A stretch of 64,000 nucleotides of DNA from Thalia democratica (Eukaryota). The stretch spans positions 30,194,001-30,258,000 of the forward strand of contig OZ241832.1 of the NCBI GenBank assembly GCA_965202585.1, written 5' to 3'. The notes under the pieces were generated by a model. The model worked only from the letters and a program-made list of their open reading frames with translations, ran no database searches and was not told the origin of the DNA. The position numbers and the translations under genes were made by a program. Of the stretch, positions 34,081 through 61,844 are shown in pieces (position 1 is the first letter of the stretch; each line of letters begins with the position of its first letter).

Positions 34081-36703
34081 CTATATAAATATACCAATAA
34101 GTCACATCAAGTCAAAAAGGTCAAGTGTAATTTTTATGGGGTTTCAATAATTTGACAATGGAAACTTTTTATAATGTGAAACTAAAACCTTTATTCAGCG
34201 GTCCTTTTATATAGTAATGAATTTAAACGATGTATTAAGTTTTTCATATTTTACAGTAACTCATTTGTATGCAGCACACATAATTAGAGCCATAAATAAT
34301 AATTCATCTAAAAATAAGTATAAGTAAAAAAGTTTAAAAAAGTTTCTAACTAGCTTTGCCCGTCTTCAAAATTGTAATGACTTAAAGTAGAGCAAAAAAA
34401 TGTATTTTATCATTCACTAATAGTTTTTTATCTGGGTATCAAGGTGAAAATTTTAAAAAGAGTCAAAAATAATAAATAACAGCAAAATTTATTTTGATGG
34501 AATAAAGATCATTTTAATGGTTTAGTAGACTCCAGATTAGTAGAAAGTAGACTCCAGAATAAATTGAAAAATGGCGTGTATGGAGCTTGAAAAGATAAAC
34601 TATAAAATTAGATGGGACCTGAATAGACTACAAGCTTTTAATTTGCAAGTTTCATACTGAATCTGGATCAAACCTACAACAAGTTGTATCAAATTCTGAG
34701 TGCAAAAAAGGATTTGGATCAAAGGTGGGTTGCGCAGTTTTCCTAGCTTATTAGAAGTAACCAAAAAATAAAAAGATAGCCAAAACACAACAATCACATA
34801 TAGTTATAGAAAACAAAAGAAGCTGTAATTCTGAGAATTTCTGGTGAAAAAAAAATCTTTTGTCCAGTTTTCATATTTTATTTCAACAAGCAGTAGGCTC
34901 CAATAATTCCACTGTGGACAGCAATTTTGCTTAGCTTCTTGCCCAGTGAAAAGACTTTTCAGGATGGTCAAGCCGTGGAAACCCATTTAGTACGCTAAAC
35001 ATTTATTGAGAAATGACAAAAATGGCATAAAACTTACAAACTTTAAAAAACACAATTTGGTACAGACAAGAATTCTGAATGATATTCTACTTAAGGTGGA
35101 CAATTGAACTCATTAAAAGAAATAGATGTATGTTTTCAATGTGGAAAAAAAGTTTTGACAAGGAAGAAAAAATAATAAATTACATCTGGGTATATAATTT
35201 AGTATTTTTTTATAAATGATTTTTTACAATAATTTAATATTCTCTGCTAATAAAAAGAATGCAGACGTTGGTTCCACACTGACTCCTTTTAGTTAAAAAA
35301 TAAACGAAGAATAACATGGGATTCGTCCAACGTGAAGATAAATTTTCAATAGTAGACTAGTACTTCTTTTAAGAAAAAAACTAGATACTGGTGGGGTTGT
35401 TTTGATAATGGATAAGGAATCAAGCAAGGCTATCTTAGTTTGCTGTGTAAAAGATCTAAAAAATAACTTATAACTAACTGGCATGTCTTTTTATTACATA
35501 TATTTAGACAAGTACGTATAATTTAAAGTTAGATAGTTTAGTAACTATTGATTCTGTATGCAGTGTATGTCAAAAAGATTTTGAGCCTCCAAAAACTAAT
35601 TCCACTTGTTTTGACAACAAACAGAAATATTCCATTTAATATCTGAACATGTGGAATATCTGAACATGAGTTTAGTTTATATGTTAATAATAAAAATCAC
35701 TTTTATTCTATAGACTGTGTAAATAACTTAGGATTAATTAATGTTGGGAGTGATGATTTCTGCAAATGTTGTAATTTTTTTTTTCTAATTTAGATGATTG
35801 TTTGTTATGTGAAGGCTGCTTTAAATGGATACATCTTAAATATTCCTAAGCATCAATTAAAAGGTTTGCAGAAATGTGAAAAAATTATTTATCCTTTTTT
35901 TGTAAAACCATAGAACTAAAAATACCTGTATGTTTTAAATGTATTTTGTGTTGAAAAAACATCTAAATATTATTTAACCTGTTTTTTTTGCTTCCAAAAA
36001 TGTCATTTTGAGTGTTCTCCTGAAAATGAAATGAAACTAAGCCTATACAAAAAATGGGATAACAAGTTTTTTTGTGATATATTTAATGAGTCTGTTTTTC
36101 CCTTTCAGAATATTGTTACTTTGCTTATGATTGTTTTTATGAATCTGTTAAGCCTTTTCTGAAATAAACAAACAGATATAGTTAGATTTGTATAGTGTAT
36201 AAATTAGCAAAAAAATTGTATTAGTATTGTTTTTGTGAATATAAGAAGCTTGAATGCAAATATTTATAAAAATGAGGAATTTTTGAGTGTAGTTGAGGGG
36301 TTGCCTGATGTGATTTGTGTGTGTCAAACGTGGCTAAATGAACTGGTACAAGTACAAAATTTCATTTCATAATGTTTTATAAGAGAAATCAATGCTCACC
36401 TTTTTTCTCGTGCAATGAAAATGTTTTCTTTTAACAGAGCAAATGATCTAGTTGGTGACATCTTATTTAAAGATGGAAGAGTCATATTAATATTACAAAT
36501 CATTGACACATTTTATTGTTGTATTCATGTTGAAAAAAACGTTTCCCACAAACTTAAAAGTAATCCTAACTTAATTTTTTTGCAAAGTAGTTTGACTTAA
36601 TACAAAACCATAGAAGAATTAAATGATAAATATGCTTTCATAATAAGCTCTGAATATTATATTAATAGTAATAAAAATATTCAAGATTATGTAAAAAAGA
36701 TGT

Positions 36704-37176
36704 TGTAATGAATACGTGCATTATTCATTATTCAAAGTTGAGCTCAGAGAATATTTTGAGTTTGACACGCTTCATTGCACTAGCCAATGAGAATCATCTG
36801 ACGTGTTTCAAACTAATTCTGATGCAACTAAATATGAGAAAATGACAGTCAGTGTATTTGTAAGCAGTTGGTGAGTTGGTGTGCAGCTGGAACTACCTTG
36901 TATTGATTTGTGATTGTGTATTGTAAGTATTGTTTTGTGTTAAAAGTGAATATTTTAACTGGTATTTAATTGTTTTAATATTTAAGCCAGGTTTATAGTT
37001 AATAGTTTATTCTTTTACAGTTTCTTCTTTACTAAAAGTTTTACTTAATTTTTAGTTTATTGTTTAAAGTCTTTTAAAGAGATTTAAATAGATTGTAATT
37101 TCTAAAAAGTTTGTCATAGTAATTTATAGTTTTGTATATGCTATTATTTCTTGTTGTGTTTTATATAAAAGATTCA
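36704..37176 (+). repeat. 5' LTR, first 473 bp (interrupted)
   Basis: No mismatch found by eye versus 42277-42749. Confidence 0.97.
36784..37170 (+). promoter_or_regulatory. Candidate LTR transcription signals: CCAAT (36784), TCAGT initiator-like (~36849), GTAAGT...TTTTACAG possible intron (36923-37020), TATATAAAA (37162-37170)
   Basis: Motifs are read directly. TATATAAAA could be either a TATA box or a variant poly(A) signal; function is inferred from LTR context only. Confidence 0.4.
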
Positions 37177-39764
37177 GCGTCCTGCGCGGGGCCCGAGGTT
37201 TAGAGATGTGACAGCTCCTATGTTAGAGAAATTGAATGATAGTCTATTTACCTACTATAACTGTTTAACTGGCTTTTTTGATAACAGAGTTCCTAATGAG
37301 CTTGACATTCGCTCTGTGGCTGATTATAGTGCAGATGTGCAAAAGGAAGTTAACAGGAGGGCTAGTTCTCGAATTATTGACCAGTTTAATACAGAGAGAG
37401 CTGCTATGGGGTTGAGACCGCTGACTGTTGAATATCTAGAAATAGCGAATCTCAAGGGTATGGATAATTTCAATCTACCAGGCAAGCAGATAAATGATCT
37501 TGTGGCTGATAACTTTAAGATCAAAGACGTTGAGATCGTTAGAGCCGACGTTTATCGTGACGGAGGTATGAGGAAAACTAGTTTATTTAAGGCTAGCACA
37601 GTTCATGGTAAAGATCCACTCAAAGAGGTGATCGAATTAGGGACAGTGTCTGAATTATTAAAGCAAGATGAGCTAAAGGTGATTCATCATAATGATAACC
37701 CTCTGGTATTCTTGGTTCATAAAGATTATTTAAAAGTGGGTGATGGCCAGGAGGAAGATGATCCTGAGGTTGCTAAGGGTATCTCTGTGACATGGTGGAG
37801 AGAGTTAGCGCCATTTCTGTTAGAGTTAAAGGATATTAAATTGACGAGTGACGAAAAGAAGTTATTTGATTTGTCAGATAAGGTTCCTTTGAGGCCATAT
37901 ACTTATAAGTTGATGAGGGAGAAGATAGGATGGAATCCAAGATTATTATTGCGAGATTATCCTTACGAGAACAGGAAAAGTTATATGTCATTCGGAAAAG
38001 GTATTGATTCTACATCCGATATATGGAGATTGAATTTCTCCGGTGAGTCAGCGAGGTTACCTAATGTAATTCTGTCAGATGTTCCTACAGACGTCGATGT
38101 TATGGATGAGTTTGAGGTCGAGTCTGACGAATCTGGGTTAGCTATTCAGAAAGCATATAGAGACGATAAGAGGCGTGACTCTGATTTAGTTGGTGTACTT
38201 AATGAAGACGAACTCCAATACTTCAAATCTTCCAATTACAAGCTGAATTTAAGAAGAACGTTGATAAAACGTTTACCGGAGGAGCAATCTGTTTATGGAA
38301 TGATGAAGTTAGAGGATAGGTTAAGGCATGTTGCGATAGTAGCTAGAAGGGATTTTTCTAAAGTTGGACCTGTGGTCCCTGTCCTTCTTAAATTGTTGGG
38401 CATCGCCTATCATGAGGTCGGGAAGAAAGGTTGGTTTAATACTGCAATCAGAAGAGCGGGTGATATGTCTATTATAGTTAATGACTGCTTATTGTTTCAT
38501 AAGACGGTTTCAGTCGTTTTAAATGCGATAGAGTTATATATCTGTTTTTCGTCTATTAAAAGGAGTGATTGGGCGGACAGGTTACTATTACTTTCGACTC
38601 TTTTTCTAATGGCTGATCCTATAATTAACACTGCTAAGCTGAAGAAGATCTTGACGGTTGGGAAACAGGGCTGTTTTTTAAGAGGTAGGAAAGCTGATGG
38701 AGTGCTATACCACAAATCTGATATGAAGGATTTTAATGTCAACATAAATATTGAAAGAGTTCTGAAGGGGGATGCGAAGATGCCTATCCTGCTTTATAAC
38801 AGATATCTTGATGAGGAAGTGTTGAAATTGCGAGAATCTTATGTTGCGGGTCCCAAATGGCAGAAAAAATTAACTGACGGGCTGCTAGATCTAATGATGG
38901 ATATTGTCAATGAGGATGGCTTAGCATGCAACATGTGGAAGTACACTTTTTTGACTTCTGTCAATAGACTGTCGGGATTCGTAGCTTCGGATCAGTTGTC
39001 AGCTTATTTAGTTGCTAGTGATAAAGCGTATAGAATAGTTCCTCCAGAGTCCTTTAAAAACAGATTATCTGAGACGTTTTATTCGGAGGCATTAAATGCA
39101 TTCAAGGCCTTTCCCCCTGAGGATACTCCAAAGACGAAGGTGATAACTGATGAAGCGAGAAGAACAGCCTCTGCTTGGGAAGAAAGACAATCTGTAACTG
39201 TTAAGAAAAAAGCTCCTAGGATTCAGAAGGGGAAGTTGATTTTAGTAGACCAGAAAGTAGAGTTGAATACAGGAAAGAAAAATATCGCTCAAATGACCGC
39301 AAATAAGATGTTAAATGTTGATGTGATTGCCAATATAAATCCAAGGATTTCTTCGGGTTCGAGAATTGTTCCAGGTGGAAAGGAAAAAAGAACGGTCTAT
39401 CCAGTTCCCTTCTGGTTTCAGGTGATTGAGTCTATTGGTAATCAAAGCTTTAATAGATATGTGAATCAAAGATTAAAAAGAGATGGTATTAATAGAAGCT
39501 ATGGGCAAGGGAAAGATTCAGCTCTTCCCCACGAAATTATAGGAGCTATTTTTTATGCTACAACACGGAACGTTCATATGATAGGGTTCGATGTGACGGG
39601 ATTTGATATCTCTCAGACTCCTTATAAGCTGTTAATTAAGAGAGCGTTTAGACAGGCAATTAAGGACTATTTCGAGGGTATCCCTAACGTTATAAGTAAT
39701 AAGAAGTTGAAAGATTTGACTCACGTAGAGACCATGTATATGGCATTTCAAGACAATTTTCAAG
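37177..39764 (+). other. Endogenous viral element: 5'- and 3'-truncated reovirus-like (Sedoreoviridae-type) RNA-dependent RNA polymerase coding sequence, 2,588 bp
   Basis: Motif F SSGSRIVPGGKEKRTVYPVP (~39350-39410; compare recalled orbivirus GSRDVPIKATRTIY and rotavirus GRRDVPGRRTRIIF). Motif A IGFDVTGFDISQ (~39581-39616; compare rotavirus YTDVSQWDSSQ). Intronless, GC-richer than flanks, ends before motifs B and C. Confidence 0.85.
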
Positions 39765-41677
39765 CAACATCGGTAGCCCACAATGGCGTCCTTTTAAGTA
39801 GTGAGAACTACCAATCTTTTAACCAACAGTTAAATAAGTCAGAATTTGATAAAAATAATCAACATTCTTATATGGGTAATTACAGTCAGCACCTTATACA
39901 TGAAAATGTGCAGGCCAATAGACATAAGCAGTCTTTAGATTATGAAAGTTCACTAGAGGTGGAAAACTTGGATATAGAGCAGCTTACAAAACTAGTAGCC
40001 CAAGCTAGAATTTTAGAAAAGAAGGCCACCTTAAAAAAGGAATTAAATTCAATTTATAATAGATTATACAAAGGTCAAAACAAATCCCAAAGTAAGATAA
40101 GTTATAGTGGCAGTAGTCCTGTATATAATTCTTCCCACACTGTAGGGGCTACATATAACAGCAATTTGAAACATAGGACCCTAGAAAATTGCAAACTTTT
40201 TTCCCAGATTGAGGCCATAGGGGACCCTGTCATTGAATTAAGATTTTTTGAGGATAGGTGTAGTACTTTTGGCATTACTGATGATACTGAGAAGTTTGAA
40301 ATACTTCAAAGAATCTGGCCACGTCCTGATATAATAGATTTTTTTGAAGCTTATGATGAGGACAGAACATACTTTAATCTTTTCAAATTTTTAGAAGGCA
40401 AAGGCAGTAAATTGCCAAAAATCTTAGGAGCCCATCCAACATGGGAAGGGCCAGTAAAATTCCAAAATTTATACTTATCAGCAAAAAAGTGGGCAAAATC
40501 AAATGAGCAAGATAGAATTAAGTATTTCATGTATGTTCATGCTCCTGATAAATTAAAAAAGAAAATTAAGGAAAATTTTGGGTTAAAGTATGAGGAATTT
40601 TTAAGGCACACAGAGTCCATATGTGAGATAGAAGAACAGAGAATTGTTGAGCATTCCAAAAACATTTCATATGAACCTCACAAACCATACTATGGTAGGT
40701 ACAGAAGTAAGAGTCACAATAATGTAGGTTGGCAGCAAAACCAAAATCTGTTTCATAATAACCACAGTAGTAACCAGCCTAATCAAGAGCACTATAGGCT
40801 GGGAGACAACCAATGTACAAATAATGGCAGAGACCACTATAACAACAAACAAAATGAAGGCTATCTAAACCAAAATTTTTCCAAAGTACATGGAAAAAAT
40901 GATAGAACAGTAAAACACTGTAATTTTGCAACCATAAAAACTCCTTCAGTTTATTCAATCAGAAAGGCACAAAAATTTAAACCTCAAGCTCCAAGAAAAA
41001 TTATAAGATATGGAGTAACAGGCCGAGTTGTGTGGTTTAATGTCAAAAAGGGATATGGATTTATTCATTGTGATAATAAAGACAGTGATGTTTTTGTTCA
41101 TCACACTGAAATTACTAAAAACAACCCTAATAAGTTTTTAAGGTCACTTGCTCAAGGTGAGGCTGTTCAGTTTGATGTTATAATAAGTGAAAGAAATTTA
41201 CCACAGGCTGTGAACGTAACAGGTCCTAATAAAAAACCAGTTAAAGGTTCCAAATATGCCCAAGACAGGTGGCCAAGCTATAACCAGAGGATTAACAGGC
41301 AACAGAGGCCTCAACAAAAATGTTATTTTGTCAATGACTATTATAAAGTAAGAGAAAAACAGCAAAGAGAGCAAAACTGTTATGAGATAAAACACAACCA
41401 CCAATTAACCCACCAGGGTCAAGCAACTGATGATAGACAATTTGCAAAAGAAAGCACCCAAACTAATTGTTCAAATGATTCATTTAAAATTAGCTCAACA
41501 GGCTATCAACCTATTAGCAATGAACAAGAACAGGTTGAACCTCAGAGTGAAATTCTAAAATTAATTTCAGAAAAAGATGAGTTGATTAAAGAAGGTTTGA
41601 AAATTGAAGAAAATGTTGAGAGTATTAAACTTAAAATTGAAAAATTAAGAAATAAAGTTTTTGAAAGGCTAATGTAA
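37220..41677 (+). CDS. Chimeric 1,485-aa ORF: truncated reovirus-like RdRp, Gag-like protein, Y-box cold-shock domain, C-terminal coiled coil
   Basis: A single open frame (open from 37169; first ATG 37220). The junction ...DNFQA|TSVAHNG... falls at 39764/39765, where LTR-derived sequence resumes. Confidence 0.9.
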   Translation: MLEKLNDSLFTYYNCLTGFFDNRVPNELDIRSVADYSADVQKEVNRRASSRIIDQFNTERAAMGLRPLTVEYLEIANLKGMDNFNLPGKQINDLVADNFKIKDVEIVRADVYRDGGMRKTSLFKASTVHGKDPLKEVIELGTVSELLKQDELKVIHHNDNPLVFLVHKDYLKVGDGQEEDDPEVAKGISVTWWRELAPFLLELKDIKLTSDEKKLFDLSDKVPLRPYTYKLMREKIGWNPRLLLRDYPYENRKSYMSFGKGIDSTSDIWRLNFSGESARLPNVILSDVPTDVDVMDEFEVESDESGLAIQKAYRDDKRRDSDLVGVLNEDELQYFKSSNYKLNLRRTLIKRLPEEQSVYGMMKLEDRLRHVAIVARRDFSKVGPVVPVLLKLLGIAYHEVGKKGWFNTAIRRAGDMSIIVNDCLLFHKTVSVVLNAIELYICFSSIKRSDWADRLLLLSTLFLMADPIINTAKLKKILTVGKQGCFLRGRKADGVLYHKSDMKDFNVNINIERVLKGDAKMPILLYNRYLDEEVLKLRESYVAGPKWQKKLTDGLLDLMMDIVNEDGLACNMWKYTFLTSVNRLSGFVASDQLSAYLVASDKAYRIVPPESFKNRLSETFYSEALNAFKAFPPEDTPKTKVITDEARRTASAWEERQSVTVKKKAPRIQKGKLILVDQKVELNTGKKNIAQMTANKMLNVDVIANINPRISSGSRIVPGGKEKRTVYPVPFWFQVIESIGNQSFNRYVNQRLKRDGINRSYGQGKDSALPHEIIGAIFYATTRNVHMIGFDVTGFDISQTPYKLLIKRAFRQAIKDYFEGIPNVISNKKLKDLTHVETMYMAFQDNFQATSVAHNGVLLSSENYQSFNQQLNKSEFDKNNQHSYMGNYSQHLIHENVQANRHKQSLDYESSLEVENLDIEQLTKLVAQARILEKKATLKKELNSIYNRLYKGQNKSQSKISYSGSSPVYNSSHTVGATYNSNLKHRTLENCKLFSQIEAIGDPVIELRFFEDRCSTFGITDDTEKFEILQRIWPRPDIIDFFEAYDEDRTYFNLFKFLEGKGSKLPKILGAHPTWEGPVKFQNLYLSAKKWAKSNEQDRIKYFMYVHAPDKLKKKIKENFGLKYEEFLRHTESICEIEEQRIVEHSKNISYEPHKPYYGRYRSKSHNNVGWQQNQNLFHNNHSSNQPNQEHYRLGDNQCTNNGRDHYNNKQNEGYLNQNFSKVHGKNDRTVKHCNFATIKTPSVYSIRKAQKFKPQAPRKIIRYGVTGRVVWFNVKKGYGFIHCDNKDSDVFVHHTEITKNNPNKFLRSLAQGEAVQFDVIISERNLPQAVNVTGPNKKPVKGSKYAQDRWPSYNQRINRQQRPQQKCYFVNDYYKVREKQQREQNCYEIKHNHQLTHQGQATDDRQFAKESTQTNCSNDSFKISSTGYQPISNEQEQVEPQSEILKLISEKDELIKEGLKIEENVESIKLKIEKLRNKVFERLM
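39765..39782 (+). repeat. Last 18 bp of the 5' LTR (caacatcggtagcccaca)
   Basis: Identical to 42918-42935, the end of the 3' LTR. Confidence 0.95.
39784..39795 (+). promoter_or_regulatory. Candidate tRNA primer-binding site (TGGCGTCCTTTT)
   Basis: TGG one base after the LTR-terminal CA is the canonical PBS position; the cognate tRNA was not identified. Confidence 0.7.
40208..40630 (+). other. Helical Gag/capsid-like core within the ORF
   Basis: ELRFFEDRCSTFGITDDTEKFEILQRIW...RTYFNLFKFL loosely fits the Gypsy-type gag pattern F..FE..F...GI.D...K...L....Y..LK..L; its position just downstream of the PBS supports Gag. Confidence 0.55.
40997..41269 (+). other. Y-box-type cold-shock domain within the ORF
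   Basis: GRVVWFNVKKGYGFI (RNP1), DVFVHHTEI (RNP2), KNNPNKFLRSL..GE.V.FDV and NVTGP...PVKGSKYAQDR closely parallel the recalled YBX1 CSD plus its C-terminal extension. Confidence 0.95.
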
Positions 41678-42250
41678 AATAACATTATTCTAGGGTTTAG
41701 TTAGGCATGACAATTGAGTGATGATTCTGTATGACTAAAAGAAATTTTTATTTTTTATTTTTTGTGAAAAAATTTTGATTCTAATACCAATTGATACTAT
41801 ATTGCCAAAGATTTTTTTTTTGAGTTTAATATTTTGATTAAGAGTTGTTTATCTATTTATAGTAAAAATAATATTTGGAATTGTAACCGTAAATTTATTG
41901 ATATTTCATTTTATTTATTGTGCAAATACTATTATGTTGATACCATTTTTTTTTTTTTTTTTTTACCATGTTGTCTAAGATTTTTTACTGAGTTAGTTAT
42001 TCTGATAAAACTTATGTTATTATATAAATTTTTTATTATGTGAAAACCAAATACTAAATTTTTCTTTCTCCTATTAATATTCTACTTAAGTTTGATTTTA
42101 AAATTAGTTCATGACTATTTTGAATTTATTTGTTCTTTACACTGTTCCTTTTATTTTGTTTTTTGCTGTTTACCAATTAGATTTAGGTGAACATCACCTT
42201 AGAATTCTTCTAGCAGGAGGCAAGCAGAGGATAGAGTGATAATCCTCTTC

Positions 42251-42276
42251 AAAAAAAAAAGGACTACAGAAGATAG
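42251..42276 (+). promoter_or_regulatory. Candidate polypurine tract
   Basis: aaaaaaaaaaggactacagaagatag lies immediately 5' of the 3' LTR. Confidence 0.6.
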
Positions 42277-42935
42277 TGTAATGAATACGTGCATTATTCA
42301 TTATTCAAAGTTGAGCTCAGAGAATATTTTGAGTTTGACACGCTTCATTGCACTAGCCAATGAGAATCATCTGACGTGTTTCAAACTAATTCTGATGCAA
42401 CTAAATATGAGAAAATGACAGTCAGTGTATTTGTAAGCAGTTGGTGAGTTGGTGTGCAGCTGGAACTACCTTGTATTGATTTGTGATTGTGTATTGTAAG
42501 TATTGTTTTGTGTTAAAAGTGAATATTTTAACTGGTATTTAATTGTTTTAATATTTAAGCCAGGTTTATAGTTAATAGTTTATTCTTTTACAGTTTCTTC
42601 TTTACTAAAAGTTTTACTTAATTTTTAGTTTATTGTTTAAAGTCTTTTAAAGAGATTTAAATAGATTGTAATTTCTAAAAAGTTTGTCATAGTAATTTAT
42701 AGTTTTGTATATGCTATTATTTCTTGTTGTGTTTTATATAAAAGATTCATCACTCAAAACTGTCTTGTCTGATTTATATAAAGTAGTATTAAGTAGTGTA
42801 TAGTTTCTATGTCCAACTATAATAATATGAATGAGAAGTATGAACAAAAAGGTCAGGTTGACTATCTGCCCACAGTAAGTCACCCTGACCCAACTGAGGC
42901 TTTAGATGTTGAGTCACCAACATCGGTAGCCCACA
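42277..42935 (+). repeat. Intact 3' LTR, 659 bp
   Basis: TG...CA, followed by TSD ATGT; contains both segments found in the split 5' LTR plus the 168 bp (42750-42917) missing there. Confidence 0.95.
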
Positions 42936-43069
42936 ATGTATTCTAAAATAACTAAAGCAATAGTTGAGCACTAGTAAGAGTGTTTATTGAATTAAGAGCC
43001 TAACTGTAAGTTTTAATCTCAAAAAAAAATATTTGTTTTAAATATTTATGTTTTTGGCTAAAAAGGAGT

Positions 43070-49249: not shown

Positions 49250-50258
49250 TCACACACGAATAACAAAACAGAGCTTCCATAGGAGCTGGAGAAATTTTTT
49301 TGACCAAACACCTTCATCGACGTCATACACTGTTACGGGATACGCACATTCGTGGAACATGAATATCTTGCTTCCGATCGACAAAGCTTTGCTGTACCGA
49401 AGCTGCATGTAGGGCACTCTCAATGCAACGAACCTGCCGTCGTCTAAAACCTCGCACTGGTTCACTCTTCCTTTTAGTAGCAGTAGTTTTCACGATCGTC
49501 AGCAACTTTACCTATTTCTCCCCATTTGTTATTAGCAGGCGAATATTTGCTAACAGACTTTACCAAAGTGAACTCGGTGTCGTGCCCACCGAAAACATAA
49601 ACCTCAAATTGCACACAGGCCACTTTTGAGTCTCTTCGTTCTTCAACATGGAAAACAGAGATTTTGTTTTAAAACTGTTAGCATTAAGCTGCAAGACGCC
49701 CCGCAGAGCTGTCTCGTGTTCTAAACAGTATCCTCCTACGACTAATATGTTAGACGACTCTTGTGTACAATACCTCTTTGTATAATAAACACAAGACCTG
49801 CTCGGTAGCTTTGTACCTTTGTCCAGCAAAAATTCATTTATTACTGAAATGCAGTCGGCTGTTTTAGCTAAAGAACTAGATCCGTTTAAAATATTTCTCA
49901 ACGTGTTTTCTGATAGCAAATTAAGACGAACTTCTAGCAACAGTTGTTTCGCGAATTTACCACGTTGTTTGAGATCGTAGCTCAACCACTCATTTACAGC
50001 ATTAAACACTTCAAGTTCCGATTTAACGCGCAGTTCAGGAGACGAAAGTATTCTTTTCATTGAAGAGTAGTTTAGTTCTAAAAAGTTTTCTTTTTTAACT
50101 ACTACTGCGAAACAGCGCTCTATATAGCTGAGCGCTGTTTCGCGAAAAGTTGTTGGAAAAAGTTCGTAGGCAGCAGCAGCGTTATTAACATCCAGCCTCT
50201 TTTTAACAATTTTACATACTTTACTAATTTTGGTTTCATCTAAAGAAAGTTTTGTCAA
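49250..50258 (-). pseudogene. Intronless BACK-Kelch (KLHL-like) pseudogene; BTB domain absent
   Basis: BACK domain FLELNYSSMKRILSSPELRVKSELEVFNAVNEWL...VRLNLL. After a frameshift near 49650 the Kelch repeat EVYVFGGHD...SVSKYSPANNKW follows, then a stop and another frame with KIFMF...VTVYDVDEGVW. Confidence 0.85.
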
Positions 50259-61232: not shown

Positions 61233-61844
61233 AAAACTATCCATCATAACCATCTCAAAGAGTGTCACATCACCCAGGACCTGGTCGCACAGAGGCACAA
61301 GGCGGTGATGGAGAAGCTTTGGGATAGATACGACCGAATCGAGAGAATGTATTGGAGAGGCGAGTCCGGAGAATACGGTGCCGACTTCTACCTGCAGGAC
61401 CCACAGAGGTTCCGAAAGACCGTGAGCCTTGCCATTATGGATTCCGGAGTGAACCTATGCAAGGTCAGAGACCGCTTCTACGGGAAAGAGGCGACGGTGT
61501 ACGCGCATTCCAACGGTGCGGAGGAAGTGGTCTTCCTAGTGATGGATGATCGAGGGGCCTGGGCGAGAGGCAGCCGGACCGATTTGAGAAGAATTGGTTT
61601 GGAGAAAACGGTTCTTGAAGCTCTGACAGTTGAGGTTTTGGCATGGACCGCCAAGACAGTTGCGTATTGGAATCGCAACTCGCGAACCCACAGGATACTG
61701 GCCGATAGTTTAAGTCTGAATGCAGAAACTGAAATAGAAGTGTTGATGGCAGCAATCACATGGTTGAATTCAGGTAATGGAAGAGAATTTTTCGAAGAAC
61801 TTTTTTTATATATTCGATTTTCCTTTTTGCACGGAAAACATTAG
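61233..61844 (+). CDS. GC-rich ORF (open from 61233, ATG 61308); tentative N-terminal part of a divergent CAF1/DEDD exonuclease-like protein
   Basis: TWLNSGNGREF has the spacing of the recalled CAF1 KWLSFHSGYDF (ExoII); AIMDSG could be a degenerate ExoI; the composition contrasts sharply with the flanks. Confidence 0.35.
   Translation, partial: KTIHHNHLKECHITQDLVAQRHKAVMEKLWDRYDRIERMYWRGESGEYGADFYLQDPQRFRKTVSLAIMDSGVNLCKVRDRFYGKEATVYAHSNGAEEVVFLVMDDRGAWARGSRTDLRRIGLEKTVLEALTVEVLAWTAKTVAYWNRNSRTHRILADSLSLNAETEIEVLMAAITWLNSGNGREFFEELFLYIRFSFLHGKH

Follow-up and report, generated by a model that had tools for sequence, protein, structure and literature searches.

A reovirus polymerase fragment inside the 5′ long terminal repeat of a gag-only retroelement in Thalia democratica

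The window analyzed here, a stretch of 64,000 nucleotides of the Thalia democratica genome (contig OZ241832.1, positions 30,194,001 to 30,258,000), contains a long terminal repeat (LTR) retroelement at 36704–42935 (+), whose 5′ LTR is interrupted by a fragment of a reovirus RNA-dependent RNA polymerase (RdRp). As a first, sequence-only reading of this DNA had proposed, it is a TG...CA element (first bases TGTAAT, last bases CCCACA) flanked by a target-site duplication (TSD), namely ATGT at 36700–36703 and 42936–42939. The hallmarks of LTR elements, TG..CA LTRs, primer-binding site (PBS), polypurine tract (PPT) and TSD, are all present. The features are given below in window positions; ORF stands for open reading frame, C4 for a longer viral copy elsewhere in the genome and L046 for a helper element, both described further on.

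36700..36703, +, left TSD ATGT (direct comparison; 4-bp TSDs also in eight parent copies)
36704..37176, +, 5′ LTR, positions 1–473 of 659, with TATATAA kept at LTR 459 (473/473 identical to the 3′ LTR; TATA-like words)
37167..37176, +, 10-nt microhomology AAAAGATTCA, LTR 464–473 equal to virus (three-way comparison with the C4 copy)
37177..39764, +, sense fragment of a reovirus (Crabreovirus-related) VP1 RdRp, N-terminal domain and part of fingers/palm
37220..41677, +, fused ORF of 1,485 aa with an internal viral Met as its start codon (ORF listing and translation)
39765..39770, +, 6-nt microhomology CAACAT, virus equal to LTR 642–647 (three-way comparison with the C4 copy)
39765..39782, +, last 18 bp of the 5′ LTR (642–659), used as coding sequence (LTR comparison)
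39784..39793, +, PBS complementary to the 3′ end of tRNA-Asn (tRNA-Asn-like gene ending GAGGACG at G000:C7:6114779)
40121..40681, +, predicted Gag capsid (CA) core, aa 968–1154 (model; VIA matches to Copia, dArc1, PEG10 and MLV capsids)
40877..40921, +, putative degenerate remnant of the CHCC-like zinc knuckle of the helper, first Cys absent (comparison with the L046 Gag by eye and motif scan)
41018..41224, +, Y-box-type cold-shock domain (CSD), aa 1267–1335, a trait of the parent family (PF00313; YB-1)
41543..41671, +, C-terminal long helix, probable coiled coil (model helix 594–636 of the Gag part, low overall confidence)
42251..42276, +, purine-rich tract upstream of the 3′ LTR, common with the helper element (326 bp at 96%)
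42277..42935, +, intact 659-bp 3′ LTR with the native Gag ATG at LTR 533 (LTR comparison)
42936..42939, +, right TSD ATGT (direct comparison)

The 5′ LTR part at 36704–37176 has 0 mismatches to positions 1–473 of the 3′ LTR. The viral sequence of 2.59 kb replaces 168 bp of the 5′ LTR (positions 474–641). In an uninterrupted LTR, this segment contains a TATATAA (499) and the start codon of Gag (533). In composition the insert (GC 39%, 71 CpG in 2,590 bp) differs from Gag (33%, 5 CpG in 1,911 bp). The PBS TGGCGTCCTC pairs with the tRNA-Asn-like gene over 9–10 bases once CCA is added. The capture by an LTR element is thus as first read, but the virus lies inside the 5′ LTR and not between LTR and gag. 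Likewise, the junctions given as 37176/37177 and 39764/39765 are both microhomology tracts (37167–37176 and 39765–39770) instead of single positions.

The N-terminal part of the ORF is a viral RdRp, as had been suggested: its sole PDB match at E≤10 was VP1 of the mud crab reovirus (MCRV; 7xr3_Z, E=7.7e-42, about 25% identity), in an alignment covering residues 302–847 of the MCRV chain including motifs F and A. A Pfam scan of the RdRp part matched no family, a word-indexed homologue search gave 0 of 7,998 candidates, and the viral contigs searched contained 0 relatives. With HMMER, five relatives were found among 1.84 billion proteins, the best being a 1,415-aa RdRp (P0002, 25%). P0003 is a full-length relative of 1,543 aa, and further crab-reovirus-like RdRp fragments (P0004–P0006, P0008–P0010) were observed on ENA contigs of 359–397 kb; the latter are probably endogenous viral elements (EVEs) of other eukaryotes.

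In the motif scan of the fragment, what we read as motifs F (aa 712) and A (aa 790) are present, and motifs B and C (GDD) are absent from the ORF. The fragment is cut near MCRV residue 850–860 of 1,425. According to the available part of the structural report on MCRV VP1, the polymerase domain comprises residues 618–1090 and the bracelet 1091–1422 (PMC10155992). The fragment lacks the thumb, the bracelet and the greater part of the palm. Since it stops before motifs B and C, it cannot act as a polymerase.

The named crabreoviruses (three crab viruses) share 86–87% identity in VP1, as given in the accessible text of PMC4748042. Compared to this, the value of about 25% to MCRV points to a distinct, unsampled lineage as the source virus. 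In the criteria tested, the virus falls outside the genus Crabreovirus, since VP1 identity is about 25% and the segment start is not AUAAAY: the C4 viral copy begins with GATTTAAAAATG, compared to AUAAAYWHH in Crabreovirus. This start may resemble the 5′ end of Cardoreovirus, but a literature search for this likeness gave 0 papers, and no such match was found in PMC8407731. Of the virus, only the VP1 segment was found.

The microhomologies at the junctions were found using C4 as proxy for the viral template. For the 10-nt match AAAAGATTCA, which is one of only five longest words common to 3.3 kb of virus and the LTR, the chance in a random join is 4e-5; for the 6-nt match CAACAT it is 2e-3. 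Double template switching is, in our judgment, very probably the origin of these junctions. In retroviral replication, the U5 copied in the first step ends in both LTRs. Since the insert is found in the 5′ LTR only, it arose either when the minus strand was completed by copying U5-R-U3 or after integration.

In the protein search all nine candidates were scored, and they fall in four places (window, a duplicate, C6 and C4). The copies in the window, in C6 and in C4 represent three separate integrations of one viral segment. The duplicate (L035/L036, G000:C8:30161862-30170627) is situated about 69 kb upstream. Its flanks and TSD are identical, and it therefore represents the same insertion as the window copy; the shared sequence stops 14 bp beyond the element. 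Within the duplicate, 33 bp are deleted, 2.56 kb are duplicated internally and two nonsense codons are present; all nine differences in the Gag region between the two copies are derived in the duplicate. The genome contains the 5′ junction word at three places, namely in C4 as the viral parent, in the window and in the duplicate, and no transposed copies of the chimera were found by this search, one duplicate only.

An assembly chimera, joining host DNA and contaminating viral sequence, would explain the locus as an artefact, and the junctions are indeed known from the assembly without confirmation at read level. We consider this explanation highly improbable, because the same junctions recur in a second copy that is diverged by substitutions, the 33-bp deletion and the internal duplication, because the virus is found on three chromosome-scale contigs with distinct junctions, and because the flanks are CpG-poor and carry the TSD. 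Moreover, public runs of two studies contain 0.92, 0.91 and 0.68 of the words searched, the best of which may be the source of the assembly itself. The share of 0.68 (organism B) is close to the 0.62 expected from C4, C6 and parent copies alone and is no evidence of the chimera there. In marine metagenomes 0.22–0.24 of the words were found, suggesting a marine host; shares of 0.08–0.10, near the level of LTR and Gag alone (0.04), were not used. Among the runs listed with these words there was no RNA run, a result without bearing on expression.

The C6 copy (L033/L034, G000:C6:41288927-41292947) is a second capture by the same family, also in sense orientation. Its viral piece is 99.5% identical, extends 60 bp past the 3′ junction of the window copy and is joined to LTR position ~135–141 with an imperfect microhomology. 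The left TSD of C6 (AAGT) abuts viral TGTAAC, a mimic of the LTR end, which indicates that the virus was joined before integration. The right LTR is folded back at an imperfect hairpin, and the intact 694-aa Gag-CSD ORF is not fused to the virus. Plus-strand mRNA is the only free strand of a reovirus, and the sense orientation of both captures fits such a template.

The C4 copy (L031/L032, G000:C4:294453-297734, −) is longer, beginning with the native ATG and including motifs B and C. It is broken by an 8-bp and a 1-bp deletion, both lacking in the window copy, and is cut before the C-terminus. Between C4 and the window copy 30 synonymous and 26 non-synonymous changes were counted (ratio of non-synonymous to synonymous change, pN/pS, 0.23; Fisher p=8e-8). 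This synonymous excess suggests divergence within the virus before capture, with C4 being a different viral genotype. As donor of the window insert C4 was rejected for its deletions, absent from the window, and for the synonymous-biased divergence. Within the 20 kb read near C4, no sequence of the carrier LTR family was found. C4 is flanked by two local 1,012-bp direct repeats, 92% alike, which were rejected as a second LTR family because only two local full-length copies without TG..CA ends exist.

These copies bear on the possibility that the parent element came first and that a break in its 5′ LTR was subsequently filled with viral cDNA, or with an older endogenous copy, through microhomology-mediated repair or ectopic conversion. 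The two-ended microhomology and the 168-bp deletion would suit end-joining, and a viral copy without carrier LTR within 20 kb (C4) implies that viral DNA has other entry routes. However, neither copy qualifies as donor, since the deletions and the synonymous excess of C4 are missing from the window and C6 is too short. The TSD of C6 abutting the virus requires a chimera before integration, and two events in one family of 190 LTRs within 802 Mb are unlikely for random repair. Repair after integration is thus given a rather slim probability.

The carrier belongs to a family of short elements. There is no pol, and the postulated parent of ~3.8 kb encoding Gag-CSD exists in many copies of 3.75–4.06 kb. 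In the genome (802 Mb) 190 matches to the LTR start were found, and the full Gag-CSD ORF is kept in 15 of the 26 best-scoring parent loci. Both ends were parsed in ten parent copies; eight of these show exact 4-bp TSDs, the remaining two form a tandem pair, and the LTR pairs mostly differ by 0–3 bases. The Gag ATG of the family is located inside the LTR (LTR 533). With a length below ~4 kb, gag only, and a partner with common LTR, PBS and PPT, the parent resembles the non-autonomous gag-only (TR-GAG-like) elements.

For the modeled Gag core (pLDDT 67), retrotransposon and retroviral capsid domains occupied the top 18 of 50 VIA rows, including Copia, dArc1, PEG10, murine leukemia virus (MLV) and Rous sarcoma virus (RSV) capsids; the best match had Z 6.8 and a root-mean-square deviation of 3.6 with 78 aligned positions. 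The model suggests, with moderate confidence, a retroviral-type capsid fold, a reading strengthened by the position in the element and by the Gag of the helper. The Pfam scan of the Gag part found no Gag family, Foldseek with both Gag models gave no match at E≤0.001, and the Gag profile gave nothing meaningful against the PDB. In metagenome contigs, 0 of 344 pattern matches were confirmed with the Gag alignment, and the search for longer proteins joining Gag-CSD to pol yielded one CSD match, which is unrelated. Atlas matches to Retrotrans_gag, obtained only at 0.80, were treated as leads only.

Of the Y-box CSD and coiled coil in which the Gag-like protein was said to end, the CSD is confirmed (PF00313, E=6e-20, the only Pfam match in the ORF; closest YB-1, E=1.7e-27), and the coiled coil is a low-confidence model helix only. 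The short family has a degenerate knuckle upstream of the CSD, with the segment at 40877..40921 as its putative remnant. Relative to the window copy, pN/pS was 0.23 for the capsid, 0.28 for the CSD and 0.78 for the linker, in comparisons that are not independent. The Y-box CSD of the carrier family appears to be under purifying selection.

Other short LTR families with a Y-box CSD were noticed at the two loci read, L044 and L045. The former has 562-bp LTRs and a 419-aa Gag frame with the CSD in an overlapping −1 frame at the usual place of pol, and the latter a 611-aa Gag-CSD frame with a core 27% identical. The genome search for CSDs returned 709 candidates; among the 150 scored, many lie in frames of 590–611 aa.

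The helper L046 (G000:C7:60873908 onward) is a 6.8-kb Ty3/gypsy element with an LTR 97% identical to the carrier LTR, the same PBS and the same tract before the LTR (326 bp at 96%). It encodes a Gag with a CHCC-like knuckle, followed by protease, reverse transcriptase (RT), RNase H and integrase (PR-RT-RH-IN). Its RT is closest to Ty3 (4ol8/7q5b, E=2e-62), which assigns the helper by sequence to Ty3/gypsy (Metaviridae). The LTR spacing of L046 is ~6.05 kb, and at least two more LTR pairs have a similar spacing. About 110 bp past its 3′ LTR a tRNA-Arg(TCG) gene was observed. Insertion targeting of tRNA genes was rejected, with one tRNA gene among 38 loci scanned and 0 in the window.

The single long ORF of 1,485 aa (37220–41677) described in the sequence-only reading was recovered. 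It is the only one above 180 aa among the four ATG ORFs of ≥100 aa in the window, and it starts at an internal viral Met, 67 codons downstream of the viral start that is seen in the C4 copy. The stated join of ~850 aa of reovirus-like RdRp to Gag holds, with the viral part open over 849 codons and the frame as a whole over 4,455 bp. That the join is in frame is an accident with a chance of one in three, as stated at first; the register is fixed by the 3′ microhomology and is in frame only by happenstance. In simulations with random substitutions, the frame stayed open with a probability of 0.74 for five of them and 0.56 for ten. Since the window lineage has 2–4 derived events, an open frame is expected at such an age and says little. 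Both the CSD and the coiled coil are traits of the parent family and not special to the chimera.

The TATA-like word at LTR 459 lies 50 nt before the viral ORF region and could start a transcript within viral sequence. Two upstream ATGs are out of frame, one of them an ATG-stop 14 nt before the Met of the ORF. Any protein from the fusion would be polymerase-dead. The functions first proposed for it (dominant-negative protein, piRNA/siRNA template, cargo of virus-like particles) find no support, as the catalytic motifs are absent, the open frame is expected, the duplicate has two nonsense codons and the C6 capture is not fused in frame.

An expressed and selected antiviral gene, acting as a dominant-negative decoy fusion or through a transcript feeding piRNA/siRNA, is quite unlikely. 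It would agree with the frame open over 4,455 bp and the TATA-like word before it, with the nine Gag-region differences all derived in the duplicate, and with the retention of three captures of one segment. In the accessible portions of the respective papers, Aedes EVEs are reported to yield piRNAs (10.1101/127498) and viral helicase domains to be fused to LTR proteins (PMC6338049). The same Aedes piRNAs are described as antisense, whereas the insert is in sense orientation under the LTR promoter. The out-of-frame upstream ATGs also argue against a gene, as do the nonsense codons already present in the duplicate and the two polarized changes of the window copy, both non-synonymous. In addition, the age is too low for selection to show. 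Most likely, the fused protein is an accident.

The observations at hand are the anatomy of the element, the microhomologies, the position in the 5′ LTR only, the helper element and the second capture. The claim of a recent, near-pristine capture of an RNA virus by an LTR element stands and is extended by the helper, the microhomologies and two more captures. We regard the element as likely to be a dead-end product of reverse transcription that arose via template switches onto viral mRNA. A non-autonomous Gag-CSD element would have been copied by RT and integrase of its autonomous Ty3/gypsy partner, presumably in a germline cell infected by a dsRNA virus related to Crabreovirus, with plus-strand VP1 mRNA inside the particle serving as template. 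In the final step, in which minus-strand DNA copies U5-R-U3 for the 5′ LTR, RT may have jumped at CAACAT to the viral mRNA, copied 2.59 kb toward its 5′ end, returned at AAAAGATTCA and finished. Insertion by the integrase would then have been regular, giving the product normal ends and a TSD of 4 bp. Capture by copy-choice is the model proposed, in the available text, for Aedes EVEs (10.1101/127498) and for eBxnv-1 (PMC5177903). The chimera is probably unable to move again, the 5′ R region and Gag start being likely lost in the swap; loss of the 5′ R would block transposition, which is consistent with the absence of transposed copies.

Several points weigh against this origin. The junctions are known from assembled sequence alone, and microhomology also marks DNA repair and is no proof of an RT switch by itself. 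The pol of L046 is broken by frameshifts, and one helper copy was examined. Transcription start and R region were deduced from TATA-like words only. Finally, the window copy has fewer derived changes than the duplicate (2–4 compared to 8–10; binomial p 0.04–0.39, per assignment of two unpolarized sites), a weak hint of constraint.

Regarding the surroundings, the target of insertion (window 36230–36700) is a decayed long interspersed nuclear element (LINE) fragment of an apurinic endonuclease, its motifs recognized by eye. Pieces of BACK/Kelch genes are located at 49560–50060 (−) and 61308–61844 (+), and several segmental repeats of 82–95% extend across 1400–31600; these repeats and the BACK/Kelch pieces constitute a duplicated gene cluster.

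A natural capture seldom retains the two LTRs together with the TSD, the two junctions, the helper and a longer version of the viral template; in this genome all of them are found. The preserved parts place the recombination at one reverse-transcription step, with at least two events in one family. An unsampled reovirus lineage related to crab reoviruses reached the germline of the host, and the sequence offers primers for finding the virus. In the longer run, the carrier family, in which a Y-box CSD stands where the knuckle would be, may prove of greater interest than the chimera itself. It is conceivable, if unlikely, that the genome hosts a large, apparently undescribed gag-only Ty3/gypsy class in which a captured Y-box CSD replaces knuckle and pol and drives packaging of bystander mRNA. 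If so, capsids equipped with a CSD of low specificity would take up such mRNA, among it reovirus mRNA on its way out of the viral cores. This would account for a single family having captured the same viral segment twice. Elements of this kind would keep a heritable record of infections by RNA viruses, and a polymerase decoy anchored to capsids could be expressed from the window copy.

Among the literature matches listed, with most subscription journals outside the search, no report was found of a crab-reovirus-like EVE or of an RdRp-Gag fusion inside an LTR. Judged by titles and the first lines of abstracts, none of these matches dealt with a CSD in LTR-element families, Repbase and GyDB lying outside the search. 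The accessible part of PMC6338049 has 0 mentions of a CSD. Published work already covers LTR elements that captured RNA viruses, EVEs from Reovirales, gag-only elements and fusions of viral domains to retrotransposon proteins. The comparisons below refer to the available parts of the papers cited.

The sole solved-structure match, MCRV (Crabreovirus, Sedoreoviridae; 7xr3_Z, PMC10155992, PMC12451637), represents a lineage distinct from the virus captured here. By homology to a reovirus protein and integration into host DNA in the assembled sequence, the insert is a non-retroviral EVE of the Reovirales. Endogenized RdRp fragments of this order are likewise described for insects and filarial nematodes (PMC12548735), but those are orbivirus-like and, in nematodes, highly degraded, whereas the window copy is open over 849 codons inside a dated element. 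In Aedes aegypti, EVEs beside Ty3/gypsy and Pao/Bel LTRs form same-strand chimeras attributed to copy-choice as well (10.1101/127498); they derive mostly from flavi-, rhabdo- and chuviruses in piRNA clusters, compared to a whole, TSD-bounded element in a decayed LINE here.

Closest in arrangement to this element is eBxnv-1, a Bel/Pao LTR element of Bursaphelenchus xylophilus with a nodavirus RdRp fragment between recent LTRs, likewise of low copy number and attributed to RT copy-choice (PMC5177903). Its RdRp retains the catalytic motifs in a separate ORF, pol is degenerate and gag is missing, and neither junction was resolved by comparison with a viral parent. The window element differs in its dsRNA virus, the insert inside the 5′ LTR, the Gag fusion, the absence of motifs B and C, the visible junction microhomologies and the second capture. 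The parent matches the TR-GAG elements of plants in its size of <~4 kb with LTRs, PBS, PPT, TSD, a single gag ORF and recent activity (PMC4350172), and differs in its animal genome, the extension of Gag by the Y-box CSD and the Gag ATG within the LTR.

The helper shares with the CsRn1 clade of Ty3/gypsy PR-RT-RH-IN, the 4-bp TSD, a CHCC-like knuckle, and a stop that separates gag from pol within one frame (PMC2582038). It deviates in the knuckle (CX2HX9CX5C in L046, CX2HX9CX3C in CsRn1) and in the PBS, which is tRNA-Trp in CsRn1 and tRNA-Asn (TGGCGTCCTC) in the helper. In the fusions of viral SF1 helicases, a piece of an RNA-virus replicase is also in frame with an LTR-element protein, but their motif sets are complete and they multiplied along with the element, whereas the window chimera is truncated and not transposed (PMC6338049). 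The element is a real and unusually complete example of a process already known, and its catalytically dead fusion is most likely accidental.

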